Source of the DNA: a virus
Lineage: Duplodnaviria > Caudoviricetes
Direction: 5' to 3' (one strand)
IMG/VR virus record: IMGVR_UViG_2974796119_000001
Span: 14,834-78,833 of that record
Length of the DNA stretch: 64,000 nucleotides
Within the stretch, counting starts at the first letter, position 1. Each line of letters begins with the position of its first letter. Below are positions 28,201 through 59,913 of the stretch, piece by piece. The notes below the pieces were generated by a model. The model was given only the letters and a program-made list of their open reading frames with translations, had not been told where the DNA came from and did no database searches. A program made the translations under genes and the position numbers.

Positions 28201-31200
28201 ACATGATAAGAAAACCTAAAACTGATGATGCTTTTTCAGGTATTGATATTGCGTTGGCAGAAGCCCCAACTGAGGTAGCTACAGAGGTGGTCGTTCCGGC
28301 CACCCCAACGCCTGTTAAAAGAACAACTGAATTTAAACCGGAAATTACAGTAGAAACAAAATCAAACAACTATGATGTTTCTATTGTTAATGGAGAATTA
28401 CAGATAAAAGCTAAACTTGGTGAGCCTAAAATTTCAACAAGTGAAAGGGCAAAAATAGTTAGTGAGTACATTAATAATACAGATTTTTCAAAAGGACCAA
28501 CAGCTAGTTTTGAAGGAAAAGGTAGTTTGTCAGATACTCAACAATCTCAGGTTATCGCTAATGAAAGTAACAATCCATTGGAAATTGCTCAAGAAATTGT
28601 ACGCGTACAAAACGCATCTACTGAAAGAATACAGCAATTAGAAACGACAAAAGACGATGCTATTGCCAATGTGTTAAAGTCATACGCTTTAAATAAAGAT
28701 GCTAAGAAAGAAGTAACCGATTTAGGTAGATATTACACAAATAAAGCTAATAAGCAAAAGAACCCTATCAGTATTGATAAAGCAAGGGAATTAGCGCAAA
28801 GTGAATTAGGAGCAGAAGTTTCATTTCAAGAGGTTTTAGATTTCTTAGAAAACAACCCAAGTATTGCACAATACAACGAAAGCTTATATGAATCAATTCC
28901 CGAAATAGCAGATTTAAAGAACAAGTTCAAAGAATTAACCGGATTAGAAGCTACAGATAAAATATTAAATAAAGTAGTAGAAAAACAAGGAGAAGTTACG
29001 GAAGAAACAACGGAAGAAACAACAGAAGATACTACTGATGAAGTTCCTTTTCAACTAGAAAGTAAGCAAACAAAAATTGCAGGAGCAGAATTAGGTGGAC
29101 TAGTAAATAGATTAAAGAAAACTGGATTAGCTGATGATGTTAGAATATTATCGGATGCACAAGCACAAAAAATACTTTCAGAAATTAAATCTGGAGAAGC
29201 AGTTACTCAAACACCAAATGGGTTTATTTACAATAACATTGTTTACCTAAACAGAGCTAAAGTAAAAATAGACACGCCTATACATGAGTTTGGGCATTTA
29301 TGGAGCTATTATATCAAAGAAATCAATCCTGATGTTTATCAAAAAGGGTTAAACTTAATTGAAAATAGTGAATATCATAATGATATTAAAAACAACTCTT
29401 TGTATGATAATCTTACCGAAGAACAAAAACTTGAAGAAGCATTAGCACAAGCTATTGGTGAAAAAGGTGTTAAGATTTTAAATGAAGCTAAAAAATCTAA
29501 ATTCTCTACCTGGTTCAAAAATTTATTCTCAAAAATTGCACAAGGATTAGGGTTAAGAAATATTTCTGGAAAACAATTATCAGAAATTACACTTGAAAAG
29601 TTTACAGATTTAGCAAGTGCTGAATTATTATCAGGAATTGAAATTGTAAAAGGAAAGGCCCCGAAACCGACAAAAAGTGAAATTGCCGATGTAAACCAAA
29701 TAGATGTTATCGTATCTGAAAGACAAGCTATCATAAAAGAACGTCAAAGATTAAAAGAATTAGTTAATTCTAAGAAGACAGTTACCGAAGCTGTAAAAAA
29801 GGAACTTGTAAAATATATAAACTCGCAACTAGATAGCCAAAAGTTATCTCAGGCAGGTAAATCTGATGTTACAAGACTTTTAAACACTGTTAGAGCAGCT
29901 AAGACTAAAACCAATTTATTAAGAGCTTTTGAACAGGTTAATGAAGTCTTCACTAAGTTGGAAAACAAAGTGTTATTCAAAGGAATAAACGATATACTTG
30001 ACAAGAAACTTTCAAAAAAAGAAAGCGGTAGAAGAAAAGCTAATTTAGTTACTGAGGAGGTTGAAACTATATTAAGAAGCGTAAAGGAAAACATTAAAAA
30101 CATACCTAAAGACGTTACTGTTCCTGCAAAAAGAAGTACTAAAAACAGAATAAATGAATATTTAGTAGAGCTTTTTGAAAAACGAGACAGTATTTTATCA
30201 AAAGAAAATCAAACTGATTCTGATTATATAGAGCTAGAGTCTTTAGTTATATCTATTGATATTTTAACTGGAATAACAGCGGAAAACTCAAATACTACTA
30301 ATGAAAATTTTACTGAAAGTTTAGGTAATTTAGCTTCAATATATGAAAACGGAAGAAGTCAATTAAAAGAACTCAGAGATCAAAGAAAAGAACAAGACCA
30401 AGAATTAATAGACGATATAATTAATGATGTAAATCCGGAAGGAATAACTACCATAAAAACTGAAAAAGAAATTAACGCTGAAAGAAAAAAAATAACTAAT
30501 GGATTAAATCGATTAATATTTAATGCAGGTTCAGGATGGTTTACAGGAAACCTAGATAGTATAATGAGTATCATTTCAAGAAGAACAGGTGAAAGCCCAT
30601 TGACTAACCTTGTTAGTGAAATGAAGAGTAAAGAAACCGGTAAAAAAAGAAGAACTAATTTATTCTCAAATAGAGTAAATCAAGCTCAGGTGGATTTATT
30701 TGGTTCTTTAACAAAAGCAGATATAGCTTTAAATAAAATAAACGAAGTAACTGTTTCAAGACAAGCTGTAGGCACCGATATTAATACACCTAAATCTCAA
30801 CAAGAATTGCCTTTTTCTAATTCACAGTTGTTGAATTTATGGATGAATAACCACAACTCTAAACTTCAAGCGGGATTAGAAGCAAATGGTTTTGACGCTA
30901 AGTTTTTTGAAAAGGTAAATAAAGTATTACCATTAAAAGTAAAAGAATACGGTGAATCATTATTTGATATTTATGATGAATTACATATTGAAGCGGATCA
31001 AGTTTACAAAGAAATGAATTTTCACTCAATGGGTAAACAAGATTTCTATGCAGGAAAAGTTTACAGAAGTGATTTTGAAACAAAACCAGATGAATTAAAA
31101 ATAGATTCAGGTAACTTCAGTATAAACAGCACAGGTTTTGGTAGCCAAAAAGAACGTACCGCAAATGATAAACCTATTGAAGCTTCAGATGTAAACACAC

Positions 31201-32723
31201 TTGTATTACGAGCTATTCAAGAAACTTCACATTATGTAGCTTTTGCGGAAGTTCATAGGAAATACGCCAAAATCCTAAAAGATAAAGGCTTTAAAAACGC
31301 AGTAAATGTTACTAATAAAAAAAACGGTGACACAATATTAAATATTCTAAATTTTTACAAAGAAAGAGATTTAGAAAGAGGTGGCTACAGAGGTAGTCCT
31401 ATTTTAGATGCACTTGCTAGAAATATATCAAGAAGTACTCTTGCATTAAAAACAAAAATTGGTGTTACTCAGATGGTATCTTTTTTCAATGGTGGAATAG
31501 ATATGCCACAATTGTCAGCTGTAGAATATGTAAAATACTATAACCCAGTAGAACTTGTAACAACAATGCGTAAACTATTAAAAGAATCAGACTATCTTAA
31601 AAATAGATATGATGTTGATGGTATAGAAAACGCAATGACAGGATTATCAGCTATTGCAGCTAAATCAGAATTTTCATTACCTAATAATACACTTGAAGCT
31701 AATAGAAAAGCTGCATCAAGATTTGTAAATAAAGCTTTTAATTATGCTTTAGCAAATGTAAAATATGGTGATATGGTTGGTGTTACTGGTGCTGTTCCTG
31801 CATATTTAGCATGGAAAGACAAATACAAAAAACAAGGATTGTCAGAAGAAGCAGCAAATCAAAAAGCTTTAAAAAGGTTTGAAGCTTCAGTAGATAAATC
31901 ACAACAAACAACATCTTCTTTTGGTAAATCACCTTTTCAGAAACACCCAGTAGGAAGATATTTTGCTATGTTCGCCACGGCTCCTATTCAAAATATCCAA
32001 AACGCAAACCTTCATTGGAGAGAGCTTTACAGAAACTTAGCTAAAGAAGGTTCTGGAAAAGGAACAAACTTTCAGCACATTATGGGTATTATGAATTATC
32101 AATTTGCCCAGCCAATGTTATATACTTATATATCTGGATTAATGGCAGGTAGTATAGCAACTGCATTAGGTTTTGGCGATGAAGAAGCAGATGATTTAGA
32201 TAAGTCATTATTAAGTTCAGCTATATTAAGTAATTACGGTTCAGCTCCTATATTTGGTTCTATTGTGACTAAAATAGTAGATATGTCTTTAGGTAAAGAA
32301 TTTACTTTTGGTGGATTATTAAGTAGTGTACTTTTTAGCACAACCGATAAATTGAACGATAACTTCAATAAGTGGATGAAAGCTAAAACAAAATCTTCTG
32401 CCGAAAAATATAAAGAAAAAACATTAAAACAAGTAGCTACTTTATTTCTTAGTATTCCTACAATGGCTACAGATACATACCTAGATTGGGATGAAATTTA
32501 CTGGAATGATAATGTTGACCAATCAGTAAAAGTTCTTAAAGCAATGGGATATAGTGATTACTTAATAGAGCAATCATTAACTACTCGAATAAGTAAAGAA
32601 TCTTCAGCAAAGAAAAAAAGAAAACAAGAAAAAAAGTTTAAAGCTTCAATTAAAAAATATGAAAAGAAAAAAACAAAAGTAAATCCATTGTTTAGGGTTG
32701 GTGGACCTAAAAACAAAAGATAA
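25275..32723 (+). CDS. giant polyvalent internal virion protein with GNAT and zincin metallopeptidase domains
   Basis: 2482 aa; GNAT motif IYVPTKSRGQGKASKVL...LYESKGF (about 27978-28175); HEFGH (29283-29297) plus EEALA. Confidence 0.75.
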   Translation: MGKQQTQPTYLSQEEYDKKLDTEISTLIDQDFGDEDIKLYGEDFKSRYAVKKKDEEVTSPDLQLDGEKDVTTSTSVGDQSIPTNGPTPEDIIQALRDTGYTDEQIKVQRESMQQEPLGTIKEPFKFEKEEQPLAERSGLPGFEGKVSAAEVDVDVSELQPQINFAQKEESLNAFKQLKDKGEISEEQYKNFEKIITDPTKKKIAEFEKLKEQYNPQRMIDLTNKFKESGVLSNQEIGSIDKEIDRKRRGDFTFLEKAKIALNFDSERNIKNININDRNSVVANAVRQKQADFMSGLDNDERLLFESYLVKRNEKLSESVKTAENFNDNIVKTALPSEVSKLRAYDAEMSKITSKPRNQLTQEDTQNYNELLTKRKQQEGVINSLGEQYEANRKTMLDNSDDLMQFNDELDLAKRDYSFYTNRVKAIDRGFQFLVENAVSFTGNTLVTIAKEVPRVRLAVGDEKLQKAQDIFNAWQINIAETKEKFEAGKGISKSFADVKGVKDFGTYVADLFTDQVPILATIYATGGAGLYTVAASSGGERTGQLLKEVKEGKKDYTQQEIIGNGLLYAGGEFIGERITLGIMNDYRRLLNTVNKSGAAKTSFREGFKNQIKGTIKGVSTANKEGLSEVYTEFFQLLADNAQLDEKRSSQFLESYVGGFVMGKGMHVAGTIPNMALGSYSKYANRQQVEKTTRQINEYQKVIAKGDLSDAIKLTYQKKITDLINKNENTINQSVDAIQNLDSSQLKEVTGINQQLIELQKALEKDNPKEVKDALGAEIKQLSDSKDKMLSSPQEQLEVLPDNGVALKEEASKILTKEKQDSGAKEFKISDTEIAFKAAELLNKQETEDAGIKVEKPKNDVSKSTMDFVEGLGVLKDVSAFVPKSIKVIVEDASAMIGETDNGNIFLETIYVPTKSRGQGKASKVLDSLTERADEQGKTIELVAAPMDATTDFNKLVKLYESKGFEKGPRFTEDTGNMIRKPKTDDAFSGIDIALAEAPTEVATEVVVPATPTPVKRTTEFKPEITVETKSNNYDVSIVNGELQIKAKLGEPKISTSERAKIVSEYINNTDFSKGPTASFEGKGSLSDTQQSQVIANESNNPLEIAQEIVRVQNASTERIQQLETTKDDAIANVLKSYALNKDAKKEVTDLGRYYTNKANKQKNPISIDKARELAQSELGAEVSFQEVLDFLENNPSIAQYNESLYESIPEIADLKNKFKELTGLEATDKILNKVVEKQGEVTEETTEETTEDTTDEVPFQLESKQTKIAGAELGGLVNRLKKTGLADDVRILSDAQAQKILSEIKSGEAVTQTPNGFIYNNIVYLNRAKVKIDTPIHEFGHLWSYYIKEINPDVYQKGLNLIENSEYHNDIKNNSLYDNLTEEQKLEEALAQAIGEKGVKILNEAKKSKFSTWFKNLFSKIAQGLGLRNISGKQLSEITLEKFTDLASAELLSGIEIVKGKAPKPTKSEIADVNQIDVIVSERQAIIKERQRLKELVNSKKTVTEAVKKELVKYINSQLDSQKLSQAGKSDVTRLLNTVRAAKTKTNLLRAFEQVNEVFTKLENKVLFKGINDILDKKLSKKESGRRKANLVTEEVETILRSVKENIKNIPKDVTVPAKRSTKNRINEYLVELFEKRDSILSKENQTDSDYIELESLVISIDILTGITAENSNTTNENFTESLGNLASIYENGRSQLKELRDQRKEQDQELIDDIINDVNPEGITTIKTEKEINAERKKITNGLNRLIFNAGSGWFTGNLDSIMSIISRRTGESPLTNLVSEMKSKETGKKRRTNLFSNRVNQAQVDLFGSLTKADIALNKINEVTVSRQAVGTDINTPKSQQELPFSNSQLLNLWMNNHNSKLQAGLEANGFDAKFFEKVNKVLPLKVKEYGESLFDIYDELHIEADQVYKEMNFHSMGKQDFYAGKVYRSDFETKPDELKIDSGNFSINSTGFGSQKERTANDKPIEASDVNTLVLRAIQETSHYVAFAEVHRKYAKILKDKGFKNAVNVTNKKNGDTILNILNFYKERDLERGGYRGSPILDALARNISRSTLALKTKIGVTQMVSFFNGGIDMPQLSAVEYVKYYNPVELVTTMRKLLKESDYLKNRYDVDGIENAMTGLSAIAAKSEFSLPNNTLEANRKAASRFVNKAFNYALANVKYGDMVGVTGAVPAYLAWKDKYKKQGLSEEAANQKALKRFEASVDKSQQTTSSFGKSPFQKHPVGRYFAMFATAPIQNIQNANLHWRELYRNLAKEGSGKGTNFQHIMGIMNYQFAQPMLYTYISGLMAGSIATALGFGDEEADDLDKSLLSSAILSNYGSAPIFGSIVTKIVDMSLGKEFTFGGLLSSVLFSTTDKLNDNFNKWMKAKTKSSAEKYKEKTLKQVATLFLSIPTMATDTYLDWDEIYWNDNVDQSVKVLKAMGYSDYLIEQSLTTRISKESSAKKKRKQEKKFKASIKKYEKKKTKVNPLFRVGGPKNKR

Positions 32724-32744: not shown

Positions 32745-33056
32745 ATGGTAAAAGAGTACAAGCAGCAATTAAAAGATCACATTACAGCCTTAGAAAAAGG
32801 ATATGATAACTTAATATTAATTCTAAAGGAAGATGTAGAAAAAGATGATGAAGGTAAAATAGCACTAAAAGATGATAAGATAAAAAGTTATGCTGATGGT
32901 ATTCTTAAAGCAGCACAAGCTTCAGATGATTTTTTATTAAGAATTAAAACTAAAAAAACAGAACTTGAAGAATTAGAAAACGAAGGTGAACCTATTCCTA
33001 AAGAAAAAGATAAACCTAAAAACAGCCAGAACCCTATAAATAAACGCTTACAATAA
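32745..33056 (+). CDS. putative terminase small subunit
   Basis: 103-aa helical protein overlapping the terL start. Confidence 0.5.
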   Translation: MVKEYKQQLKDHITALEKGYDNLILILKEDVEKDDEGKIALKDDKIKSYADGILKAAQASDDFLLRIKTKKTELEELENEGEPIPKEKDKPKNSQNPINKRLQ

Positions 33057-35326
33057 TGGATAAAAGTTATAGAGACAGAATAGGTAAAAAGATTAATATT
33101 TCTGACATTGTTCCGTTAGACGTTTACAAAACAAAAAATGAAAAAAAATCATGGGAGTATAGAGAATACCCTCAGTACAATATAAACTTTATATGTATTT
33201 CTAAAGATGGTACTTTAGGTGAAATATGGAAAGTAGGTGATTTGTTTATTGGTCTTCCTTCTGTAGAGGGTAAAGAAATTATAAACGCAGGTAAACCCCC
33301 AAAAGAATCAAAATGGGTTAGAGAAAAACCACCAGTAGAGTTTCGTAAATTATGGTTTAAGTACAAGAGCGAAATGGGAGAAACACATCAATCAAAATCA
33401 CCTGAAGTTCGTAAGCGTTTTGTTCAGGAGAGAAATGAATTAATAACTAAAAATATTGATTTTGTAAATGGTGAATTTGACAAAAGAGAATATGGTTTAT
33501 TTATAAAAATTGATGAAGAAGTTCACTACTTCACAGGTGAATATTGGATGTTCTTATCACACTATTACCTTACTGAATCTAATATGTATGGTTTCTTTAG
33601 AACCGTAGCTATGGAAGCATTATGGCATTGGGAAGCTTGTAAAGCAGATACTAGAGTATGGGGAGAAATTAGAGGAAAAGGACGTAGAACAAGTTGGAGT
33701 GTTGAAAGTTCTAGTATGGCCCTAAATGCTTTTACAATTACAAAATTCGCTAAAATACCTATTGTTTCAGAACGTAGTCAATTAGCAAAAGAACTATTTC
33801 AAGGTAAAATTGTAAGCTCATTTGAGTATTATCCTATTTATTTTAAGCCTTTAATTAATTTACCCAATAGTAGTGTTTCTAGTAATTTAACAGTAGAATT
33901 TGAAACAGACGAAGCTGAAAGATCAGTTATAAATCATTATCCAACAAAAACAACAGCATACGATTCAACAAAGGTTAAAAACATATCGATTAATGATGAA
34001 ATTGGTAAATGGGAAAACGAATCTTTAATAGATTTTATATCAAGACACTCAAGATGCCATACGGAAGGAGGTGCTACCGGAAGATTTGGAAGTACTGCCG
34101 GAGAGTATGCAAACGGTGGAGGTGAGGAATTTGAGATTGAATTTATGTCAGCTAACGCAAATGAAAGAAATGCTTTAGGTAGAACAAAAAATGGTTTAGT
34201 ATCATTCTTTATAGATGTTTGCTACACCATGACACAACCAGTAAGTTACTTTGATGAATGGGGTTATTCTATAGTTAACGACCCAATTGAGCCAATAATT
34301 AATGAGCAGGGTAAATTAATATCTATTGGAGCTGTAACAGATTGGCAAATAGTACATGATGATTTAAAGAAAAGTGGTAAAAAGAAAGCTTATAATTCTT
34401 TTTTAAGAGATATGCCAAGAACATTAAACCACATGTTCACTAACGAAGGAGGTACAAATAATGATTTTGATATTAATAATTTAAACGAACATGAAAACTA
34501 CCTTAAAAGTATTCCTAGCATTGAAATTAATGAAAAGATATTTAGAGGTAATTTAATTTTTGCAGGAGAAAAATTTAATTCACCTGTAATATGGAGGCCT
34601 AATGACAATGGTAGAATACAAACAACCTGGCTACCGGAAGAAGCATTACAAAACCAATCATATACTAAAGATTTTTATGGCAAAAAATTAAAGTTCCCAT
34701 CAAATAACCATATTGGCTGTTTTGGAGTAGATAGTTATGATATATCTAAAACAGTTGACGATAATGGTTCAAACGGAGCAGTTGTGGGTTATAGTAAGTT
34801 CAATATGGCGGGCGCACCGTCAAATTCATTTTTTTTAAAATACCTACATAGACCAGATAAACGTGATGATTTTTATGACGATACAATTTGCATGCTTCAA
34901 TACTTCTCAATGTTTGCTTTGGTAGAAAATAACAAGCCAAGACTTTTAGAGTACATGAAAGACTACGGCTATAGAGGTTATTCAATGACTAGACCTGATA
35001 AAAAATGGAAAGATTTATCAGATTTCGAAAAAGAGCATGGAGGAATCCCCGCTTCAGCACAGACAAATAAAGATTGTGCTAGTTTACACAAAGATTACAT
35101 ACTGGATTTTATAGGTCAAAACGTGGAAAAAGAATGTAATTGTTACTTTATAGACATGATTCAAGAATGGAAAAAATTCGATGTAAACAAACGTAAGAAA
35201 TTTGATTTAACCGTTGCAGGAGAATTAGCATTAATGGGCAGTCAATATAAAGTCAAACAAAGAAAGTCTTTAAATATTGGAGTTAATAATCGCACGAGTT
35301 TTTCGTTTAGCGACTTTGGAGCCTAA
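33056..35326 (+). CDS. terL: terminase large subunit
   Basis: Walker A-like KGRRTSWS, Walker B ISINDE, nuclease GVDSYD and FDLTVA. Confidence 0.9.
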   Translation: MDKSYRDRIGKKINISDIVPLDVYKTKNEKKSWEYREYPQYNINFICISKDGTLGEIWKVGDLFIGLPSVEGKEIINAGKPPKESKWVREKPPVEFRKLWFKYKSEMGETHQSKSPEVRKRFVQERNELITKNIDFVNGEFDKREYGLFIKIDEEVHYFTGEYWMFLSHYYLTESNMYGFFRTVAMEALWHWEACKADTRVWGEIRGKGRRTSWSVESSSMALNAFTITKFAKIPIVSERSQLAKELFQGKIVSSFEYYPIYFKPLINLPNSSVSSNLTVEFETDEAERSVINHYPTKTTAYDSTKVKNISINDEIGKWENESLIDFISRHSRCHTEGGATGRFGSTAGEYANGGGEEFEIEFMSANANERNALGRTKNGLVSFFIDVCYTMTQPVSYFDEWGYSIVNDPIEPIINEQGKLISIGAVTDWQIVHDDLKKSGKKKAYNSFLRDMPRTLNHMFTNEGGTNNDFDINNLNEHENYLKSIPSIEINEKIFRGNLIFAGEKFNSPVIWRPNDNGRIQTTWLPEEALQNQSYTKDFYGKKLKFPSNNHIGCFGVDSYDISKTVDDNGSNGAVVGYSKFNMAGAPSNSFFLKYLHRPDKRDDFYDDTICMLQYFSMFALVENNKPRLLEYMKDYGYRGYSMTRPDKKWKDLSDFEKEHGGIPASAQTNKDCASLHKDYILDFIGQNVEKECNCYFIDMIQEWKKFDVNKRKKFDLTVAGELALMGSQYKVKQRKSLNIGVNNRTSFSFSDFGA

Positions 35327-35375: not shown

Positions 35376-37841
35376 ATGATGAACGATTTATACGGAAATT
35401 TCCCAGACGATTTTGCTACAAATGCAGAAAAAGACAACCTATCTTTTGGTAAAGAGGTTGGTAAAGCTGCAGCTAGTTTGTGGTATAATGGTAAGTTGTC
35501 AGCAAGAAGAAAATGGATTACTGAAATGAGACAGTATTCCAGAGGAGAGCAAATGACTAACTATAAAGAAATGATAGAGGGTAGTCGAAAGAATGGGAAA
35601 ATGGATATGAAAACCCATAAAATAGACTATGATCGTAAATTAAAAACACTTGCGGTTTTTAAAGATATTGTTACAAATCAAATTGACGAATCTTTATTTA
35701 AACCTAGAGCTGAAGCCGTAAATAGAATAGCTGTAAATAAAAAGAAAGATTACTTTAAAAAACTAGACGATGATTTTTACACTAAAGATATTGCATCTTT
35801 AATAAGTGGAGCTACAGGTGTTGATTTAGGTACTGATAATATGCCTAAAGACGAGCAAGATTTAAAGGTTAAAAAACTAGAATATAAACCAGACATTGAA
35901 ATAGCTCAAGAATTAGCTATTGAAAATGTAATGAAGCATCAGAAATTCGAAGTCGTAAAAGATAGAATGGATGAAGATTTATTTAATTTAGGTTTTGCAG
36001 TAGGAAGACACTACACAGATAATACCGAAGGCATAAAGCTTAAATATGTTGACCCTTATAATTATATTCACACTTCATTTGAAATGGAAGATGGTAGAGA
36101 TATACGGCTACATGGAGAATTAAATGAAGACACTATTTCTAATTTAGCTAAAATGGCAGGTGGTTTTTCTGAGGAACAATATTTAGCTTTAAAAAAATTA
36201 GCTTTAGGTAGAGATAAAGTTGAGACTTACAACGACAAAGAAGACGGAAATAGATTAATCGAATACATATATTTTGCTTATGAATTACCAAAAAGTAAAA
36301 TATTTAAAAAACTAAGAAAAAACAAGATTACAAAGTTAATAGACCGTACTTTAGATGGGTACGAACCTACAAACAAAAACAAAAAAGTAGAAATACCTTT
36401 TAATACATGGTATGAAGGTATGTATATTCCTCAAGCAGACATTATAGTAAAATGGAGCGAAATGGAAAACCAAGTAGAGGATAATATCAACAACCCGGTA
36501 AGTCCTTTTGTTGTTTATGCGCCAAATGTAAAGAGATTATCAGAAACAGGTACTACACGTTTTGATAGTATGGTTGAAAGAGCTATACCAATTGTAGATG
36601 ATATTCAAAGAGACTGGTACAAGTTCCAACAATTAAAAATGGAATTAAGGCCAAACACTACTGAAATCGATGTAGATGCTATTCAGAATGTAGCTTTAAA
36701 CGGTCAAAAATTAGACCCAAAAGACGTATTGGATTTATTTTTTGGTAGAGGTTTATTACTTAAACAAAAATACGATGAAGATGGTGATGTTATTGAAAAC
36801 GCAGTAAGAGAATCACCTTCCTCAGTTAATTACAATGCTATTCAGTTTTTATCAACAGAATTTACAAACAATTACAATCGATTAAGACAGTTATTAGGTA
36901 TAAACGAACTTAGAGACGGTACGACACAAACTAATACAAGAATGAGTGCTACGGTACAAAAATTACTTTTAGCTAGTTCTAATAACGCTACAAATCATAT
37001 TGTAAAAGCTAGTTTCAGTATGTCGCTAATGTTTTCTCAGGCGGTATCATATAGATTATATGATGTACTTAAAGAGCCTAGTTTAAAAAGTATGTATATG
37101 GACGTTATAGGTACTACCAACGTAGAGTTGTTAGATGCTATAAAAGAAATACCAATGCATAAATTTGGTATCTATTTTGATTTCAAACCAGATAACGAAG
37201 AAAGATTAGCTTTTGAACAATCATTGGTAAACGCATTAAATGGTCAAGAAATAAATAGCGCACAATATAACAAAGCTAGACAGATTAGAAATGTTAAAAA
37301 TGCGATTAGATATATTGAAATTGTTATTGAAGAAAATATTGAAAAAAAAGAACAGGCAAAACTTCAAAATATTCAAGCCCAAGCTCAGGCAAATGCTCAA
37401 TCTACAGTTGTTGCAGAAAGAGCAAAACAAGCTACAGAACTTCAAAAATGGAACTTAATAAAACAAGAGCTTTTATTAAAGGATCAGCTAGAAGAACGAA
37501 AAGACAGAAGAAACGCTTTAAAAGATGATATTTTAGCAGAAAGAAAACATAGGAGAACTATGGAGATAGAAGAAAAAAAGCTCCAAGCTTCAATGTCTTT
37601 AAATCAATACAAAGAAGATAAAAAAGACGATAGGATAAACCAAGTTGCTACTAACACTTCAGCAATTGTAGATCAAAAAGTAAACCAAAAACCGGCAATA
37701 GACTTCAAAAATCAAATAGATGATATATTTAGCTCTACAAGTCTAATAGATAATCAACCTCCTTTATCAGAGCAGTTATCAGAAACACCTACAAATACAG
37801 GAGTGCAAGAGCAAATTACTGAAGTAGAAACAAATATTTAA
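35376..37841 (+). CDS. portal protein
   Basis: 821 aa after terL; LKYVDPYN, LRQLLGINELRDG, C-terminal coiled-coil barrel. Confidence 0.85.
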   Translation: MMNDLYGNFPDDFATNAEKDNLSFGKEVGKAAASLWYNGKLSARRKWITEMRQYSRGEQMTNYKEMIEGSRKNGKMDMKTHKIDYDRKLKTLAVFKDIVTNQIDESLFKPRAEAVNRIAVNKKKDYFKKLDDDFYTKDIASLISGATGVDLGTDNMPKDEQDLKVKKLEYKPDIEIAQELAIENVMKHQKFEVVKDRMDEDLFNLGFAVGRHYTDNTEGIKLKYVDPYNYIHTSFEMEDGRDIRLHGELNEDTISNLAKMAGGFSEEQYLALKKLALGRDKVETYNDKEDGNRLIEYIYFAYELPKSKIFKKLRKNKITKLIDRTLDGYEPTNKNKKVEIPFNTWYEGMYIPQADIIVKWSEMENQVEDNINNPVSPFVVYAPNVKRLSETGTTRFDSMVERAIPIVDDIQRDWYKFQQLKMELRPNTTEIDVDAIQNVALNGQKLDPKDVLDLFFGRGLLLKQKYDEDGDVIENAVRESPSSVNYNAIQFLSTEFTNNYNRLRQLLGINELRDGTTQTNTRMSATVQKLLLASSNNATNHIVKASFSMSLMFSQAVSYRLYDVLKEPSLKSMYMDVIGTTNVELLDAIKEIPMHKFGIYFDFKPDNEERLAFEQSLVNALNGQEINSAQYNKARQIRNVKNAIRYIEIVIEENIEKKEQAKLQNIQAQAQANAQSTVVAERAKQATELQKWNLIKQELLLKDQLEERKDRRNALKDDILAERKHRRTMEIEEKKLQASMSLNQYKEDKKDDRINQVATNTSAIVDQKVNQKPAIDFKNQIDDIFSSTSLIDNQPPLSEQLSETPTNTGVQEQITEVETNI

Positions 37842-54892: not shown

Positions 54893-55616
54893 AGGTCAAG
54901 GCAAAGCTAAATCGTATGGCTGTGGGGTTGAATTACCTTATTCAGAAAACAATGGCTTAAAAACGTATAAAGCGAAGTATGGGCTTGGTTTAGATTGCAA
55001 GTGTTATTATACATGGCTTTACAGTTCTGAGGAAGGTTCTAAAATAGTTTCGTCTTTAGCTTTAAAAGCAAAAAAGGAAGTTGCTGAAAAATCTAAAAAG
55101 GAGGATAGTGAAAGGATGCAGAAAATGAAAATAGATTCTATGTCTCCAGATAAATATAGAGCTAAATATGTTCAGCCTTTAATTAACAAAATAGCACGTT
55201 ATATAGACCATGGTAACCCATGTACTCCTACCGGTAATTATGAGGGTAAAATGGCGGGGGGCCATTATACAAGTGTTGGAGCGAACAGAACTATTTGTTT
55301 GAATCTACATAATATTTTCATACAGAGTTTTGCTTCTAATAGTTGGAAAGGCGGTGATGATAAAAAATACAGAGCTGCTTTAGAAAGAATATTCGGACTA
55401 AAGTATCTTGAATTTGTGGAGGGATTAAATTCACATAGGTCAATTCAGCTAAGGAAGCCTCAACTAATTGAAATAAAAGAAAAGGCCGAGAAAATAGCAC
55501 TTCATTTAAAGAAAAATTTACAAGTATTAAGTTCAGAACAAAGAATAGAAGTTCGAAATACTATAAATGTAGAATTAGGAATTTATGACGAAGGGTATTG
55601 TCAGTTTATAAAATAA
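54870..55616 (+). CDS. NinG/Rap-like protein with N-terminal Cys domain
   Basis: QPLINKIARYID.G.PC...GGHY.SVGA...LHNIFIQ. Confidence 0.7.
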   Translation: MATIKKCKGQGKAKSYGCGVELPYSENNGLKTYKAKYGLGLDCKCYYTWLYSSEEGSKIVSSLALKAKKEVAEKSKKEDSERMQKMKIDSMSPDKYRAKYVQPLINKIARYIDHGNPCTPTGNYEGKMAGGHYTSVGANRTICLNLHNIFIQSFASNSWKGGDDKKYRAALERIFGLKYLEFVEGLNSHRSIQLRKPQLIEIKEKAEKIALHLKKNLQVLSSEQRIEVRNTINVELGIYDEGYCQFIK

Positions 55617-55629
55617 AACAACTATAATC

Positions 55630-56142
55630 ATGTACAAGGAAATATTTAAGAGTGGGCTAAACGATAAGTCTTTAGCAGCTGCAGGAGAATATGCTTTAGT
55701 AAAGGTTATGTACGGTGTTAATCATAGAGAAAAAATAAGACAAATATTTGAGCTTTATAATGAAAAAGGTATTATTCTAAAAGAATCAAATGAAAAAAGT
55801 GATGTTTTAGAGTATTTCAAAAAACCAAATAACACTTATGACTTGATTAAAGAATCTCTTAAAATAAAACCTATTGTTAAAGTTCCTACAGCAGAACTAC
55901 ATATTATTCATAAAGACGGTTCCATAGATATTAAGCATTACCCTACTAAAAGTGATTCATACGATGGTTCCAAAATAAACAATCTTTACATAAACGATGA
56001 AGTGGGTCATTGGTCCGATCCTAAATTAGCTAATCTACCTTCTTTTGGTGTAGGATGGACAGCAAACCCTAAATACGTATCAGGAATAGACCCATACGAT
56101 ATAAACGATGAAGAGTCTAAAGGAAGTTTAAAATATAAATAA
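55630..56142 (+). CDS. mini-protein containing terminase Walker B and nuclease motif fragments
   Basis: aa 101-128 are 16/28 identical to TerL aa 292-319; GIDPYDI...GS resembles TerL GVDSYDI...GS. Confidence 0.75.
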   Translation: MYKEIFKSGLNDKSLAAAGEYALVKVMYGVNHREKIRQIFELYNEKGIILKESNEKSDVLEYFKKPNNTYDLIKESLKIKPIVKVPTAELHIIHKDGSIDIKHYPTKSDSYDGSKINNLYINDEVGHWSDPKLANLPSFGVGWTANPKYVSGIDPYDINDEESKGSLKYK

Positions 56143-56144
56143 TA

Positions 56145-56297
56145 ATGGCAGTACCGGAAGAATACCTTTACTATCCAAACGGACAAAAGAAAGCTGTACT
56201 AGTTCATATTTTACGAGACTCAGAATGTCCTTGTACCTGGGAAGAAGATGGTAATCACTTCACAGATGGAATTAAAATTTATAAAAGATTAGGATAA
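56145..56297 (+). CDS. 50-aa ORF missing from the ORF track
   Basis: MAVPEEYLYYPNGQKK...; stop overlaps the next ATG. Confidence 0.6.
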   Translation: MAVPEEYLYYPNGQKKAVLVHILRDSECPCTWEEDGNHFTDGIKIYKRLG

Positions 56298-56680
56298 TGG
56301 GAAAATTTTATAAACAAAAAAAAATTGTTATTCCAATTTACGGACAGGATATGTATTTCATAGATACTAACGATTGTGATAAATTAAATAATACACACGC
56401 TACAGAGGAAGAGAAAGAACCTTATGCGGTAGCACTTACTTTATATAAATATAAAAACGGTGACAGCAACGCTTACTATGCTATTGTGTTAAATACTAAA
56501 AGTTCACACGGAAAACCCAGTATTGGAGTTCTAGCGCATGAATGTTTACATATAGTAAATATGATTTCACATAATCTTGGTATGAAACCAGATTTCAAAA
56601 ACGATGAACCTCAAGCTTATTTATTAGATTATTTAGTAGATAAAGCAATGAAGTTTTATTATCCAAAAACATTAATATAA
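56297..56680 (+). CDS. small zincin metallopeptidase
   Basis: LAHECLH...DEPQAYL. Confidence 0.75.
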   Translation: MGKFYKQKKIVIPIYGQDMYFIDTNDCDKLNNTHATEEEKEPYAVALTLYKYKNGDSNAYYAIVLNTKSSHGKPSIGVLAHECLHIVNMISHNLGMKPDFKNDEPQAYLLDYLVDKAMKFYYPKTLI

Positions 56681-56825
56681 TAATGAAAAAGTTTATTAAA
56701 TACTACTTAATATTAATTTTGTTTAGTTTTACCTTACTGTTATTAAGTAGTTTTTTAAAGTAAAATATTTAAGGAGGTTGCGGAAAATCCTAAATAGAGT
56801 ACGCACATTTTAAAACAATTATATT

Positions 56826-57113
56826 ATGAATAACGAATTATTTGATTTTTCACAAGACATGACAAAAGAACAATCTTTAGAACAAAACGTAAAATGCGAC
56901 AAGCAGTTAAGAGTTAATTTAGATGATGAATTACAAAGATTAAAAGGCTTGACTCCATCAAGAGAACGTTCTTTAGCTATTACAAACTTACAACAGTCTA
57001 TTATGTGGTTAGGAATGGATTTAAAACGATTAAATGAAGCAACACCTTATCCTGATAGCTATAAGCCAGAGAACACTAAAATAGCACCAACAGCAGACGA
57101 ACTTAAACTATAA
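56826..57113 (+). CDS. Acb2/Tad1-like helical-hairpin protein (putative signal sponge)
   Basis: PSRERSLAITNLQQSIMWL. Confidence 0.6.
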   Translation: MNNELFDFSQDMTKEQSLEQNVKCDKQLRVNLDDELQRLKGLTPSRERSLAITNLQQSIMWLGMDLKRLNEATPYPDSYKPENTKIAPTADELKL

Positions 57114-57130
57114 ACTAAATATAAATAATT

Positions 57131-57397
57131 ATGGAATTAGTAAATTTTGGAGAAGCGATTAAAGCTCTTAAAGAAGGTAAACGTGTACAACGTCAAGGAT
57201 GGAATGGTAAAGGAATGTATCTTTATTTAGTTAAAGGACAAAGCTTTCCTTCATTAACAGAACACGCTAAAAAAGAGTTTGGAGAAAACACACCTTACAG
57301 ACCTTACATGGCTTTAAAAACAGCCCAAAACGATATAGCAACATGGTCACCAAGTGGTAGCGATGCTTTAGCTGACGACTGGATAGTATTAGATTAA
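57131..57397 (+). CDS. tad2: DUF2829/Tad2 family anti-defence sponge
   Basis: NFGEAIKALKEGKRVQRQGWNGKGMYL...WSPSGSDALADDW. Confidence 0.85.
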   Translation: MELVNFGEAIKALKEGKRVQRQGWNGKGMYLYLVKGQSFPSLTEHAKKEFGENTPYRPYMALKTAQNDIATWSPSGSDALADDWIVLD

Positions 57398-57425
57398 TTA
57401 AATTATTAAATAAAAAACAATAATC

Positions 57426-57965
57426 ATGACGAAAGCAACCAAAAAAACAGAAGTAAAAAAAGTAATTGAACAATCTAAACCAGGTACTCCAATGCCTGCT
57501 TTTGAAAAATTCACTAGAAAAGGTGTTTCAGAAATGAGGCCTTATGTTTTAGGTGAGGACTTAACCGGTGTTTCAGTATCTAAAGAAGATAACCCTGAAA
57601 AAGATATGGGTATGATAGCTAGAAACCCAAAAAATCATAAAGACCAATGGTATGTAGCTAAAGCTTATTTTGATGAAAACCTACAACCTGAAGAAGTAGA
57701 TGCTTCTAAATTAGCAGAAAAATCAGCAACAGAACCTAATTTTTACGATAGATTATTAATCGAAAAAGAACAGTTAGAAGAAAAAACAGTAGGTCTTAAA
57801 ACTTTTATTGACTCAAATCCTGTTTACGGAAAGTTAGATCAAGTTCAAAAAAACTTAATGCTTATACAGCTCAAATCAATGAAGCAATACCTTGACTGCT
57901 TAGACAGAAGAGAAATGATGTTAAGACCTGCAGTAGAAGAAACCCTGCCAACACAAGAGGATTAG
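57426..57965 (+). CDS. two-domain protein: small beta domain plus crAss001_48-like helical hairpin
   Basis: MIARNPKNHKDQWYV; FYDRLLIEKEQLEEK...QLKSMKQYLDCLDRR. Confidence 0.6.
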   Translation: MTKATKKTEVKKVIEQSKPGTPMPAFEKFTRKGVSEMRPYVLGEDLTGVSVSKEDNPEKDMGMIARNPKNHKDQWYVAKAYFDENLQPEEVDASKLAEKSATEPNFYDRLLIEKEQLEEKTVGLKTFIDSNPVYGKLDQVQKNLMLIQLKSMKQYLDCLDRREMMLRPAVEETLPTQED

Positions 57966-57985
57966 GTTTATTCAAAAAGTTTAAC

Positions 57986-58075
57986 TACATTTGATTAAGC
58001 ATACTTTTTTAAAGTCATTCTTTTTCATAGCAATTTTTTTTTATCCTTTCAGTTAATTCTGGAAGGATTTTTTTA
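57986..58075 (+). ncRNA. candidate small RNA (promoter, U-rich body, terminator)
   Basis: TACATTTG (57986-57993); CTTTTTCATAGC; terminator ATCCTTTCAG/CTGGAAGGAT plus T-run. Confidence 0.55.
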
Positions 58076-58091
58076 TTCAATATAATTGTTA

Positions 58092-58099
58092 TATGTTTG
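58092..58099 (+). promoter_or_regulatory. -7 promoter element of tRNA block 1
   Basis: TATGTTTG. Confidence 0.7.
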
Positions 58100-58103
58100 C
58101 CGT

Positions 58104-58166
58104 ATGAAAACAAAATTATATTCATATAGCTGTTTTAGTTCTTGGTTTAAAAACCGAGCAGGATAA
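58104..58166 (+). CDS. attenuator leader peptide 1 (MKTKLYSYSCFSSWFKNRAG)
   Basis: 10 consecutive Tyr/Ser/Cys/Phe/Trp codons; last codons AGCAGGAT complementary to the terminator 5' arm. Confidence 0.8.
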   Translation: MKTKLYSYSCFSSWFKNRAG

Positions 58167-58191
58167 CTATTTGTAATATTTAAACATATAT

Positions 58192-58226
58192 AAAAAGTCC
58201 TGCTATCATAGTAGGACTTTTTTTTA
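58192..58226 (+). terminator. attenuator terminator 1
   Basis: AAAAAGTCCTGCT-ATCAT-AGTAGGACTTTTT plus T-run, directly before tRNA-Tyr. Confidence 0.85.
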
Positions 58227-58227
58227 T

Positions 58228-58296
58228 GGGAGTAATTCTAAGGAGAAACCGAGATTGTAACCCTCCAAATAGTAAGTTCGATTCTTGCTACTCCCA
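58228..58296 (+). tRNA. tRNA-Tyr(GTA), atypical
   Basis: acceptor GGGAGTA/TACTCCC, T-arm GTAAG-TTCGATT-CTTGC, loop TTGTAAC; 4-nt D-loop, weak anticodon stem, short variable loop. Confidence 0.65.
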
Positions 58297-58303
58297 CAAA
58301 AAC

Positions 58304-58371
58304 ACATCTAAGCCTATGGAGGCAAGCGGATTCCAAACTCGTAGAACAGAGTTCGACTCTTTGTAGATGTG
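58304..58371 (+). tRNA. tRNA-Trp(CCA)
   Basis: acceptor ACATCTA/TAGATGT, loop TTCCAAA, G73; 4-nt D-loop. Confidence 0.75.
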
Positions 58372-58376
58372 CTAAT

Positions 58377-58449
58377 GGTTTTATAGCTCAGTTGGTAGAG
58401 CGTCAGGTTGAAGACCTGAGCGTCATTGGTTCGAATCCAATTAAAACCA
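58377..58449 (+). tRNA. tRNA-Phe(GAA)
   Basis: canonical cloverleaf, TCAGG-TTGAAGA-CCTGA. Confidence 0.95.
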
Positions 58450-58453
58450 CTAT

Positions 58454-58543
58454 AGAAGAATAAGCCGAGTTGGTCTATCGGCAGCGCACTTGAAATGCGT
58501 CAATCCTTAAAAGGGTGTGTGAGTTCGAGTCTCACTTCTTCTG
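58454..58543 (+). tRNA. tRNA-Ser(TGA)
   Basis: long variable arm, GCGCA-CTTGAAA-TGCGT, G73. Confidence 0.95.
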
Positions 58544-58548
58544 CAAAA

Positions 58549-58622
58549 GTTTTCGTAGTCAAGCGGTCCAAGACAGATGATTGCAACCCTGAAGGTCACC
58601 AGTTCGAATCTGGTCGAAAACT
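58549..58622 (+). tRNA. tRNA-Cys(GCA) with disrupted anticodon stem
   Basis: acceptor GTTTTCG/CGAAAAC, U73, loop TTGCAAC; GATGA/CCTGA barely pairs. Confidence 0.65.
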
Positions 58623-58626
58623 CTAT

Positions 58627-58709
58627 AGGAAGGTGGCAGAGTGGTAATGCAGCGTCCTGCTAAGACGTAGAACCGAAAGGTTCCCTGAGTTCGAATCTCA
58701 GTCTTCCTG
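58627..58709 (+). tRNA. tRNA-Ser(GCT)
   Basis: long variable arm, GCGTC-CTGCTAA-GACGT, G73. Confidence 0.95.
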
Positions 58710-58741
58710 CAAATTTTATTTTGCTATCTAATAAAAAAGAT

Positions 58742-58958: not shown

Positions 58959-59465
58959 ATGAAACAAGATATTTTAAGATTAAGAAAAGAAGGTAAAACA
59001 TATACAGAGATACAAAATTCTTTAGGTTGCTCTAGGGGAACAATATCATATCACTGTGGTAAAGGTCAGAAAGAGAAAACAAAAGCCAGAACCATTAAAA
59101 ATCGAAGGAATACTAAAAGTAAAATATTAAGAAAAATAGATTTATTTATAAATAGAAATTCTGATAATAAATTATCATACAGAAAGAGGAGTGAGATACA
59201 CGTGAAAATGTTAAATAAAGTTTTAGACAATCCTATCTGTTATTTAACAGGTAAAGAAATAAATTTACATGAATCAGAATCTTATAATTTAGATCACATA
59301 ATACCATTTAGCAAAGGAGGTGAAAATACTTTAAGTAATATGGGCTTAACAAGTAAAGACGCTAATCATTCTAAAAGTTATTTAACATTTAATGAATATA
59401 TTAACTTATGTAAAGATGTTTTAAACAACAATGGATATAAAGTATCGAAACGAGTAATGGACTAA
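58959..59465 (+). CDS. HNH homing endonuclease with N-terminal HTH, inside the tRNA cluster
   Basis: GKTYTEIQNSLGCSRGTISYH; LDHIIPFSKGGENTLSNM...ANHSK. Confidence 0.9.
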   Translation: MKQDILRLRKEGKTYTEIQNSLGCSRGTISYHCGKGQKEKTKARTIKNRRNTKSKILRKIDLFINRNSDNKLSYRKRSEIHVKMLNKVLDNPICYLTGKEINLHESESYNLDHIIPFSKGGENTLSNMGLTSKDANHSKSYLTFNEYINLCKDVLNNNGYKVSKRVMD

Positions 59466-59525
59466 TTGGTAAGTCGCCTACTTTGGATGTAGGACATCAT
59501 GCAGGTTCGAGTCCTGCTTACTCGA
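59451..59525 (+). tRNA. tRNA-Pro(TGG)
   Basis: acceptor CGAGTAA/TTACTCG, CCTAC-TTTGGAT-GTAGG. Confidence 0.9.
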
Positions 59526-59585
59526 CGAAGTAGATTGTTACTAATTCATAGACTGGGCGAAAAATCAGAGCATAGAATTAGACAT

Positions 59586-59657
59586 TGAGATATGGTGTAA
59601 TTGGTAACACACGTGCTTTTGGCGCACGCATTTTAGGTTCGAGTCCTTGTATCTCAA
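59586..59657 (+). tRNA. tRNA-Gln(TTG)
   Basis: T1-A72, CGTGC-TTTTGGC-GCACG. Confidence 0.9.
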
Positions 59658-59663
59658 CAAAAT

Positions 59664-59737
59664 GGTCTTTTAGCTCAGTTGGTTAGAGCAATCCCCTCAT
59701 AAGGGATAGGTCACAGGTTCGAATCCTGTACAGACCA
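59664..59737 (+). tRNA. tRNA with CAT anticodon, probably Ile2 (lysidine, reads ATA)
   Basis: ATCCC-CTCATAA-GGGAT; no initiator features; leader 2 contains ATA. Confidence 0.8.
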
Positions 59738-59746
59738 CATTAAAAA

Positions 59747-59819
59747 GGGTTATTAGCTCAGTCGGTAGAGCAGGACGCTGTTAACGTCAAGGTCATAGGT
59801 TCGAATCCTTTATAACCCG
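59747..59819 (+). tRNA. tRNA-Asn(GTT)
   Basis: GGACG-CTGTTAA-CGTCA, G73. Confidence 0.93.
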
Positions 59820-59825
59820 CTAAAT

Positions 59826-59899
59826 GCTTCGATGATGGAAATGGCTTACATGATCGGCTTAGACCCGATTTTATACGAGTTCGAATCTCGTTCGAAGTA
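59826..59899 (+). tRNA. tRNA-Leu(TAG) with short variable loop
   Basis: ATCGG-CTTAGAC-CCGAT, 5-nt variable loop TTTAT, A73. Confidence 0.75.
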
Positions 59900-59913
59900 C
59901 TAAAGTTTAGAGC

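Follow-up and report, generated by a model that had tools for sequence, protein, structure and literature searches.

Which host immune signals, if any, would a phage neutralize with three consecutive small genes at positions 56826–57965, and how far does such a counter-defense function extend into the genes around them? We addressed this question in a 64,000-nucleotide window (the whole stretch of DNA analyzed, to which all coordinates refer) from a complete, A+T-rich 78.8-kb phage whose host probably belongs to the Bacteroidota. The three genes appear to sit in an early/replication-side block of rightward genes, and we consider it probable that they form an operon of immune-signal sponges with the coverage set out below, as predicted from the ligands of related proteins. 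Each product is a small protein that would be expected to homo-oligomerize, with pockets at the subunit interfaces that would bind and hide nucleotide second messengers made by host defense systems upon infection, so that the effectors would never be switched on.

Layout of the locus

ORF1 (56826..57113, 95 aa), ORF2 (57131..57397, 88 aa), and ORF3 (57426..57965, 179 aa) all lie on the + strand and, according to the ORF list, are separated by gaps of only 17 and 28 nt. ORF1 matches Pfam PF24729 Acb2_Tad1_hairpin marginally, at 27.4 bits (0.4 bits over the cut-off of 27), and is assigned as an Acb2-family helical-hairpin sponge. ORF2, which we place with Tad2 (DUF2829) sponges like MoTad2/ModTad2, matches PF11195 Tad2-like (DUF2829) at 93.2 bits (cut-off 25) over profile positions 2–72 of 73. 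Alignments dissect ORF3 into a Lys-rich leader (residues 1–21), an unnamed, conserved, beta-rich domain that we refer to as the N-module (residues 24–88; 57495..57689, + strand), and a Sequestin domain (residues 104–162; 57735..57911, + strand) that matches PF21825 crAss001_48 at 57.2 bits (cut-off 24.8); Pfam 38.1 names this family Sequestin, formerly “crAss001_48 related.” The Pfam matches confirm the consecutive Acb2/Tad1-like hairpin, DUF2829, and crAss001_48-like genes that a preliminary description of this DNA had reported, and the family membership of all three supports its view that the locus is a tandem array of genes for nucleotide-signal sponges.

The complete 78,833-bp genome contains a single Acb2 hairpin, a single Tad2, and a single Sequestin domain, and 56826–57965 is where all three are located. 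The probability that three given genes are consecutive by chance, 6/(n(n−1)), is ∼5e-4 for an estimated n of roughly 110 genes. A related 77-kb phage has a corresponding locus in the same slot, following the same 50-aa and 127-aa genes, that encodes a 120-aa Tad2, a 73-aa protein without assignment, and a protein composed of N-module and Sequestin, with no Acb2. This difference in sponge content fits an exchangeable anti-defense slot. A Megablast search of the sponge locus against 50,697 phage records gave no match, nor did an NCBIfam search with six local proteins.

A terminator-like hairpin (58043..58068, + strand; 10-bp stem followed by a T-run) lies 78 nt past the ORF3 stop codon and is probably the 3′ end of the three-gene unit. 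It is the sole such site in 55500–58400, where ∼1.2 are expected by chance, and is thus weak evidence by itself. At the other end, the 145-nt gap before ORF1 contains a candidate hairpin (56702..56757, + strand) in which an 11-bp A+T-rich stem precedes a U-run, and the motif TAATTTTG is located in its loop at 56714–56721. The fold z-score of this hairpin is only −0.79, and the window has no excess of TAnnTTTG (102 occurrences versus 113 expected). Hairpin and motif were rejected as operon start signals, being no better than chance, and we regard the hairpin as a possible boundary.

Families and predicted ligands of the three sponges

Judged by its sequence, ORF1 is a member of the Acb2 family. 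The ORF1-family profile matches the C-terminal hairpin of Tad1 in PDB 8kbb (E = 3.6e-6), and the clade motif of ORF1 is found at least 32 times in the Acb2 homolog table of Hadary et al. The AF2 model (mean pLDDT 82) consists of two helices, residues 14–40 and 46–69, and no strands, followed by a conserved tail, PYPDSY..PTAD.LKL. The closest tested relative is Acb2 #5 of Hadary et al. (IMGVR_UViG_3300017963_000102, 97 aa), to which ORF1 is identical at 36 of 68 positions (53%). The two proteins share the arrangement of two long antiparallel helices, the motif ...SRERSLA.TK.QE.IMWLGMDLK..., and the conserved C-terminal tail, and differ by a 10-residue insertion in #5. In a search of PDB sequences ORF1 matched only the Tad1 hairpin, with no match to the Acb2 chains of PaMx33 or T4; PaMx33 Acb2 is a homohexamer with pockets for cyclic di- and trinucleotides involving, for example, Y11 and K26. 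ORF1 is not a full Tad1: a Tad1 of about 125–140 aa has an N-terminal beta-sheet domain preceding its C-terminal hairpin, whereas ORF1 has 95 aa and a strandless model, and its matches cover only Tad1 residues ∼50–116, that is, the hairpin. Foldseek of the ORF1 model against the PDB returned nothing at E≤0.001, and Tad1 chains appeared only amid many generic helical hairpins; a fold search is unable to discriminate a helical hairpin such as this one.

Acb2 #5, the one tested member of the ORF1 clade, inhibited 3′3′-cGAMP CBASS only, and we infer from such relatives that ORF1 would sequester cyclic dinucleotides of CBASS, such as 3′3′-cGAMP. Ligand specificities differ widely among Acb2 and Tad2 proteins, and Hadary et al. 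found 19 of 84 homologs to inhibit none of seven systems; identities of 53–59% to a tested relative, as for ORF1 and ORF2, do not fix the ligand.

The relatives of ORF2 can be ranked more sharply. Its match to ModTad2 (PDB 8v3e/9eib; E = 1.6e-32, 114.6 bits) compares with 60.9 bits (E = 1e-15) for SPO1 Tad2 and 48.4 bits for HgmTad2-like. Residues 1–87 of ORF2 align without gaps to residues 1–87 of ModTad2, with 51 of 87 identical (59%); ORF2 and MoTad2 are both 88 aa long, while 41% of their residues differ. Among tested Tad2s, the ORF2 signature YRPY...NDIATW is common to MoTad2 only. ORF2 is also nearer to MoTad2 than to the Tad2s that act on type I Thoeris and has the same insertion architecture after strand β2, which places it in the MoTad2 clade. 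MoTad2 (ModTad2) is the Tad2 of a prophage of Myroides odoratus, a member of the Bacteroidota, which is also the likely host phylum of the present phage; its structure is available as apo protein (PDB 8V3E) and with His-ADPR (PDB 9EIB). MoTad2 sequesters His-ADPR, the signal of type II Thoeris, and cUMP/cCMP, the signals of Pycsar, and does not inhibit type I Thoeris; its His-ADPR pocket is located at the A–B interface and its cUMP pocket at the A–C interface. Because ORF2 is closest to MoTad2, its ligands are likely to be His-ADPR and possibly cUMP/cCMP rather than gcADPR, which runs against the type I gcADPR ligand assumed for the Tad2 in the preliminary description. ORF2 also matches DUF2829 entries described as “Inhibitor of Type II CRISPR-Cas system” and AcrIIA7 (E = 8.6e-12 and 4e-11), and could on that basis be an AcrIIA7-like anti-CRISPR or have some other DUF2829 function in place of a Thoeris/Pycsar sponge activity. 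We consider this very improbable, since those entries score 46–48 bits against 114.6 bits for ModTad2, the length and ungapped alignment are those of ModTad2, and sponge genes flank ORF2 on both sides.

The C-terminal domain of ORF3 is assigned by its Pfam match and its key residues as a member of the Sequestin family. It is identical to SequestinA at 23 of 60 positions (38%) in an ungapped alignment, in which R109, E113, Q148, and R162 of ORF3 coincide with R8, E12, Q47, and R61 of SequestinA. These are the ligand-contacting residues reported by Tal et al., who found E12, Q47, and R61 to be essential; all four are retained. In the AF2 model of ORF3 (mean pLDDT 87.9), the Sequestin hairpin (helices 106–130 and 139–166) is predicted at a pLDDT of about 96. 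This is a model of the monomer; Sequestins assemble into antiparallel homodimers or tetramers whose pockets lie at the interfaces. PF21825 is the validated family of Sequestins, sponges of 3′cADPR, of which 10 of 13 tested members inhibited type I Thoeris. The domain would thus be predicted from its closest tested relatives to capture 3′cADPR (1′′–3′ gcADPR) of type I Thoeris, and the crAss001_48-like gene does not count among the unknown neighbors. Sequestins such as SequestinA/B and T4 Y16Q are usually stand-alone proteins of 60–80 aa, whereas here the domain is the C-terminal part of a 179-aa fusion. Fusions between sponges have been described (Acb4-Tad2 of Pasteurella phage Pm86, Tad2-Sequestin, and Sequestin-Acb4), and ORF3 resembles them in carrying two small modules per chain. 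The published partners of Sequestin are, however, Tad2 and Acb4, not the N-module, which is not a member of any described family.

The N-terminal module of ORF3

Homologs of the N-module form 1,094 clusters (50% identity, E≤1e-3) and are encoded on 491 IMG/VR contigs, but occur in only 2 of 50,697 records of cultured phages. Very often the module is a stand-alone protein of 65–80 aa. Among the 1,094 clusters, the 150 best show conservation of at least 90% at R38, Y40, G43, E44, S50, D55, A65, R66, N67, P68, D73, W75, F82, and N85, and the consensus reads ..RKGLSEMRPYV.GEDL.GISVS..D.P...GMIARNP.NH.DQWYVA..YF..N.E. In the ORF3 model the module has a pLDDT of 83–97, with predicted strands at residues 27–31, 33–39, 63–66, and 74–77 and a predicted helix at 79–85. 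It is found fused to four validated sponge families, namely Tad2, Sequestin, the Acb2/Tad1 hairpin, and Lockin, and also to WDGH, MazG, dUTPase_2, DUF551, and zinc ribbons; an identifiable partner is nearly always a sponge. In a Rhizobium phage of similar size, a stand-alone N-module gene lies between tRNA-Pro(tgg) and tRNA-Gln(ttg).

The N-module matched nothing in Pfam, PHROG, NCBIfam, or the PDB sequences, and five stand-alone homologs likewise matched no PHROG. A Pfam search of 150 module-bearing proteins at E≤5 revealed no family recurring on the module, and PGDYG, to which the ESM Atlas had pointed (score 0.86, TM 0.55), was absent from that search and was dropped. Foldseek of the whole ORF3 model against the PDB gave nothing at E≤0.001. 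A VIA-align comparison of ORF3 with 48,161 chains returned a list occupied by the generic helical hairpin (residues 91–171) and so in effect covers the hairpin, not the N-module. The literature searched held no description of the module; Tad3–Tad8 were compared through PDB sequences only.

Acb4 (PF13876) matched neither ORF3 at E≤1 nor any of the 150 module-bearing proteins at E≤5, and a search of the genome for PF13876 found none. Lockin (PF26760) was represented by the LockinA/B core ..LLCKASSQ..GWMKSTK..VQVTTQQRNPDGSY..; ORF3 scores 24 over 10 residues against the LockinA core, and genuine fusions of N-module and Lockin score 146–247, but in their other half. TadIV-1, from T4-like phages, forms a helical dimer in which two antiparallel helices are accompanied by a flexible loop at the N terminus, whereas the N-module is predicted to have several beta strands and lacks a PDB sequence match. 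The N-terminal domain of phage N4 gp49 resembles the module in its size of about 80 aa, its lack of a Pfam family, and its fusion to Tad2 and Sequestin. A profile–profile comparison by hhalign gave a probability of 6.5% (P = 0.0056, 24 columns; reversed control 0.2%), and the single N4 sequence scored 12.9 against 10.2±2.1 for shuffles. The conserved motifs differ as well (EGYLVEYPD...GYISWSP in gp49, GMIARNP.NH.DQWYV in the N-module), and identity of the two is not supported, with no significant sequence relationship between them. The N-module and the separate N4 domain together suggest that several such partner domains remain undescribed.

We tentatively propose that the N-module founds a new phage family, the eighth of the sponge type, that sequesters or cleaves an immune nucleotide signal. 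In ORF3 it would be a fourth, undescribed unit, and we think that binding or processing of yet another such signal is its most likely function; that signal could be one not yet assigned to any sponge. Fusion to validated sponges is the logic by which Sequestin was discovered, and the fusion of the N-module to four validated families counts for a signal-binding role in the same way. Two circumstances would explain its escape from notice so far: lacking a Pfam model, it could not have surfaced in the published fusion screen, which was based on Pfam, and it is nearly absent from cultured phages. Genomic neighborhood is too weak as support: in a set of 138 ORFs, of which 125 flank the module and 13 are long module-bearing ORFs, about 6 match sponge or anti-defense families.

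An accessory role is somewhat doubtful in our assessment, although several observations would suit it. The N-module could be a handle for oligomerization or stabilization, or could dock onto a host or phage protein, in which case the cluster would encode three sponge activities only. Its partners differ in symmetry (dimer, tetramer, and hexamer) and include the non-sponge proteins named above, its genomic neighbors are heterogeneous, and Dec of phage L, a capsid-decoration barrel, appears in the Foldseek list of ORF3, albeit far down (E = 2.6). The frequent stand-alone occurrence of the module is not, however, what would be expected of a mere handle, the predominance of sponges among identifiable partners argues in the same direction, and the ∼14 highly conserved, mostly polar or aromatic positions form a pattern that suits a ligand site over a generic interface.

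Nor is the N-module likely to be a small enzyme that degrades a signal, instead of a sponge; the precedent for such an enzyme is Acb5, whose 72-aa chains form a tetramer that cuts 3′3′-cGAMP. The two are similar in size, several beta strands are predicted in the N-module, and the module carries conserved His, Asp, Glu, Arg, and Trp residues. Moreover, hhalign against Acb5A yields 31 columns with 39% identity, in which W38, the base-stacking residue of Acb5A, stands opposite the nearly invariant W75. The comparison is nevertheless not significant: the HMM score is 0.6 bits, a value equaled or exceeded by 87 shuffles, and hhalign gives a probability of 5.6%. The hhalign alignment does not extend to H61 of Acb5A and, in our reading, sets R10 opposite the non-conserved L42 of ORF3, and the core motifs of the N-module are absent from all 1,480 Acb5 homologs gathered by sequence and structure. 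A resemblance to Acb5 that we first noticed by eye is without statistical support.

New immune signals have repeatedly come to light through sponges used as baits, gcADPR through Tad1 and His-ADPR through MoTad2. If the signal-binding reading of the N-module holds, the module would represent a new counter-defense family and would also help to identify the signal that it recognizes. The three named genes, which come from a phage likely to infect Bacteroidota, are a compact example, useful for annotation and not surprising; the value of the locus lies in the unnamed module, which is abundant, strongly conserved, and joined in single chains with members of four sponge families that have been validated by experiment. 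Of the nearby unknowns that the preliminary description had proposed as anti-defense candidates, the suggestion holds for this one item, which had not been singled out.

Genes flanking the cluster

The preliminary description had further interpreted 55.6–59.9 kb as a single layered counter-defense island of sensor decoy, signal sponges, and tRNA rescue. In such a model a mini-terminase would act as a decoy for defenses that sense terminase, the zincin and small ORFs would be further inhibitors, and the tRNAs would rescue translation from tRNA-cleaving defenses. The sponge operon is indeed flanked by small genes without known function and by nine tRNA genes, and sponges or candidate sponges lie beside tRNA blocks at least twice, here and in the Rhizobium phage. 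The labels “mini-terminase” and “zincin,” however, are based on motifs alone. The only terminase signal in the upstream 170-aa ORF (55630–56142) is a sub-threshold match to TerL_ATPase (E = 0.022), and a search of the genome with the same model found no such family elsewhere. The “zincin,” a 127-aa protein encoded upstream at 56297–56680, has an HExxH motif, a match to phrog_1365 (unknown function), and a sub-threshold similarity to Peptidase_M91 (E = 0.12). The related 77-kb phage retains the 50-aa and 127-aa genes but not the 170-aa ORF. Codon supply is the ordinary explanation of phage tRNA genes. Taken together, a layered island of this extent seems improbable to us. The downstream tRNA blocks themselves stand as described, at 58377–58710 and 59451–59900, with eight genes called by ARAGORN and nine by Rfam, and an HNH endonuclease gene (58959–59465) is located between them.

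Three tandem sponge-family genes

The source record is a complete viral genome (78,833 bp) that carries direct terminal repeats; the window spans its positions 14834–78833 and has a G+C content of ~30%. Three adjacent plus-strand genes, ORF1 (56826–57113, 95 aa), ORF2 (57131–57397, 88 aa), and ORF3 (57426–57965, 179 aa), are separated by gaps of 17 and 28 nt. The family labels that the preliminary description gave to this co-directional cluster were reproduced by Pfam, which assigned ORF1 to Acb2_Tad1_hairpin (27.4 bits, cut-off 27), ORF2 to Tad2-like/DUF2829 (93.2 bits), and ORF3 residues 104–162 to crAss001_48 (PF21825, 57.2 bits). Each domain occurs once in the genome, within the cluster, and the genome contains no Acb4 domain match. 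ORF1, ORF2, and ORF3 each add a member to a known family; the novelty of the cluster lies in the N-terminal half of ORF3, which carries an unnamed domain (N-module). The earlier reading of the cluster as sponges, small proteins that sequester immune nucleotide signals, was right in kind, but its details need correction.

The AF2 monomer model of ORF1 displays a two-helix hairpin (helices 14–40 and 46–69) followed by a conserved, poorly modelled C-terminal tail; fold searches do not discriminate among folds as simple as this hairpin. A profile of 61 ORF1-family members matched the C-terminal hairpin of Tad1 (8kbb) with E = 3.6e-6. Judged from its sequence, ORF1 is Acb2-like in architecture, because the N-terminal β domain of Tad1 is absent. 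The Acb2 homologue table published by Hadary et al. contains at least 32 copies of the motif that marks the ORF1 clade (..SRERSLAITKLQEAIMWLGMDLKRL..PTADGLKL). Their Acb2 #5, the one clade member tested, is identical to ORF1 at 36 of 68 positions; of seven systems, it inhibited only the 3'3'-cGAMP CBASS of E. albertii.

Among all PDB sequences, ORF2 is closest to ModTad2, the Tad2 of a Myroides odoratus prophage (8V3E, 9EIB; E = 1.6e-32), with residues 1–87 of both aligned without gaps and 51 of 87 identical; SPO1 Tad2 (1e-15) and HgmTad2/AcrIIA7-like chains (~1e-11) follow. In Table S2 of the corresponding study, which lists 84 homologues and control sponges, only ModTad2 has the YRPY...NDIATW signature of ORF2. 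ModTad2 does not inhibit type I Thoeris and blocks both Pycsar systems, holding cUMP/cCMP in a second pocket (Table S2, row 93). Since this closest relative spares type I Thoeris, the earlier expectation that ORF2 captures gcADPR has to be replaced; its 59% identity to ModTad2 points instead to His-ADPR, with or without cUMP/cCMP, as the probable ligand.

The function of PF21825 is now known. In a search for Pfam families fused to Tad2 or Acb4, Tal et al. identified it, observed inhibition of type I Thoeris by 10 of 13 members, and named the protein, which binds 3'cADPR and releases it intact, Sequestin, the name that PF21825 carries in Pfam 38.1. ORF3 aligns with SequestinA, a tested member, over 60 gap-free residues (23 identical), and its R109, E113, Q148, and R162 occupy the positions of R8, which touches the phosphates, and of the essential E12, Q47, and R61. 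The predicted model of this region displays the expected helical hairpin (pLDDT ~96).

The N-terminal module of ORF3

In most ORF3 homologues similarity is confined to residues ~24–88, and this N-module is a discrete unit that can be N-terminal or C-terminal in the proteins carrying it. It matched nothing in Pfam (even at E ≤ 5), PHROGs, NCBIfam, or, by sequence, PDB chains, and retrieved only unnamed viral clusters from the ESM Atlas. When 1.84 billion representatives were searched exhaustively with phmmer, 1,094 clusters matched at E ≤ 1e-3 and 337 at E ≤ 1e-10; many of the matches are stand-alone proteins of 65–80 aa. The module is encoded on 491 IMG/VR contigs and by cultured phages in only 2 of 50,697 records, both N4-like Rhizobium phages.

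Several fusion partners of the module can be identified. Among the best 150 of the 1,094 clusters, just three Pfam partners recur: Tad2 (5), Sequestin (5), and the Acb2/Tad1 hairpin (2). The homologues include fusions to Tad2 (P0135, P0178, P0180, P0194), Sequestin (P0121–P0123, P0162), the Acb2/Tad1 hairpin (P0131, P0193), and WDGH, MazG, dUTPase_2, and DUF551. In six others (P0124, P0144, P0158, P0172, P0183, P0190) the second half is 63–77% identical to the LockinA core; PF26760, which corresponds to the Lockin sponge family, is present in precomputed annotations and absent from the Pfam copy searched. Such N-module–Lockin fusions also occur, without comment, in the published Lockin table. 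Because the published screen for fusions considered Pfam families only, it missed the module, for which no Pfam model exists. P0131 (L088:4001–4930, 309 aa) appears from its sequence to be a multi-module fusion, with an Acb2/Tad1-type hairpin at 103–128 (a sub-threshold Pfam match of 24 bits), unassigned sequence, and a C-terminal N-module at 241–309. Weak zinc-ribbon matches in several of the 150 proteins (Zn_Ribbon_TF in four, best E = 1.6e-4) would be an additional partner class outside the known sponges.

None of the described families compared, including Acb4, Lockin, and TadIV-1, fits the module; a resemblance to the cGAMP-cleaving Acb5A was not significant when tested, and the module's motifs are absent from the 1,480-member Acb5 table. 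The unnamed N-domain that precedes Tad2 in the phage N4 "gp49" CDS belongs to a family likewise fused to Tad2 and Sequestin, yet profile-profile comparison with the N-module gave only 6.5% probability over 24 columns, and on current evidence the two appear to be separate domains. Conservation reaches 90% or more at ~14 positions in the best 150 clusters, including R38, E44, D55, R66, N67, D73, and W75; this conservation and the frequent stand-alone form would speak for a ligand site rather than a passive linker. The neighbourhood census is weak, with ~6 of 138 ORFs matching sponge or anti-defence families. The N-module is a well-supported candidate, open to direct test, for another family that acts on immune signals; we rate such a role as slightly less likely than not.

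The first 21 residues of ORF3 (57426–57491) form a Lys-rich leader that is modelled less confidently (pLDDT ~70). Several homologues begin exactly at the module, and residue 23 of ORF3 is an in-frame Met, so the true start could be 57492. In N4 (EF056009.1, 33632–34485), the CDS next to "gp49", annotated "gp48", encodes the PF13876 (Acb4-family) protein, though PF13876 is named after "N4 Gp49"; the Acb4-family gene thus lies directly beside a Tad2 gene of two modules.

Genomic setting of the cluster

Upstream of the cluster, Pfam and PHROGs identify SSB (DUF3127) and NinG/Rap genes, followed by 170-aa and 50-aa ORFs and a 127-aa HExxH protein. The "mini-terminase" and "zincin" of the preliminary description correspond to sub-threshold Pfam matches only (170-aa ORF, TerL_ATPase, E = 0.022; 127-aa protein, Peptidase_M91, E = 0.12), and no test here lends support to the decoy and tRNA-rescue functions proposed alongside them. 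A possible hairpin and a TAnnTTTG motif upstream of ORF1 do not exceed chance expectation; a terminator-like hairpin (58043–58068) lies downstream of ORF3.

A related 77-kb phage contig (GCA_014845145.1) has the same gene order, with SSB, NinG, other genes, and the 50-aa and 127-aa genes preceding the sponge slot; the 170-aa ORF is not conserved. Its slot encodes a 120-aa Tad2, a 73-aa protein, and an N-module+Sequestin protein, without Acb2. Because the same position holds different sponge content, the slot looks like an anti-defence locus with exchangeable genes. The 73-aa ORF (L002:5766–5987), which lies between the Tad2 and N-module+Sequestin genes in the position of ORF2, has no match in Pfam, PHROG, or NCBIfam and is a candidate further small anti-defence protein.

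Downstream, nine tRNA genes form two blocks separated by an HNH endonuclease gene (58959–59465; HTH + HNH, phrog_6050), whose final 15 nt overlap the 5' end of tRNA-Pro(tgg) (59451–59526). The ninth tRNA (58549–58622) was detected by Rfam only (42.3 bits) and missed by ARAGORN; 58229–58376, shortly after a terminator-like hairpin, looks tRNA-like by eye and is called by neither. In Rhizobium phage RHph_N38 (MN988517.1), a stand-alone 70-aa N-module gene (73057–73269) near the right end of the 78-kb N4-like genome is flanked by tRNA-Pro(tgg) and tRNA-Gln(ttg); the same two tRNAs adjoin the window's sponge operon, and the genomes are of the same size. Elsewhere in the window, a 2,482-aa ORF (25275–32723) without a PHROG match at E ≤ 1e-5 lies directly upstream of the large terminase (33056–35326) and portal (35376–37841) genes, and its product may be a giant virion protein or polymerase like those of crAss-like or N4-like phages.
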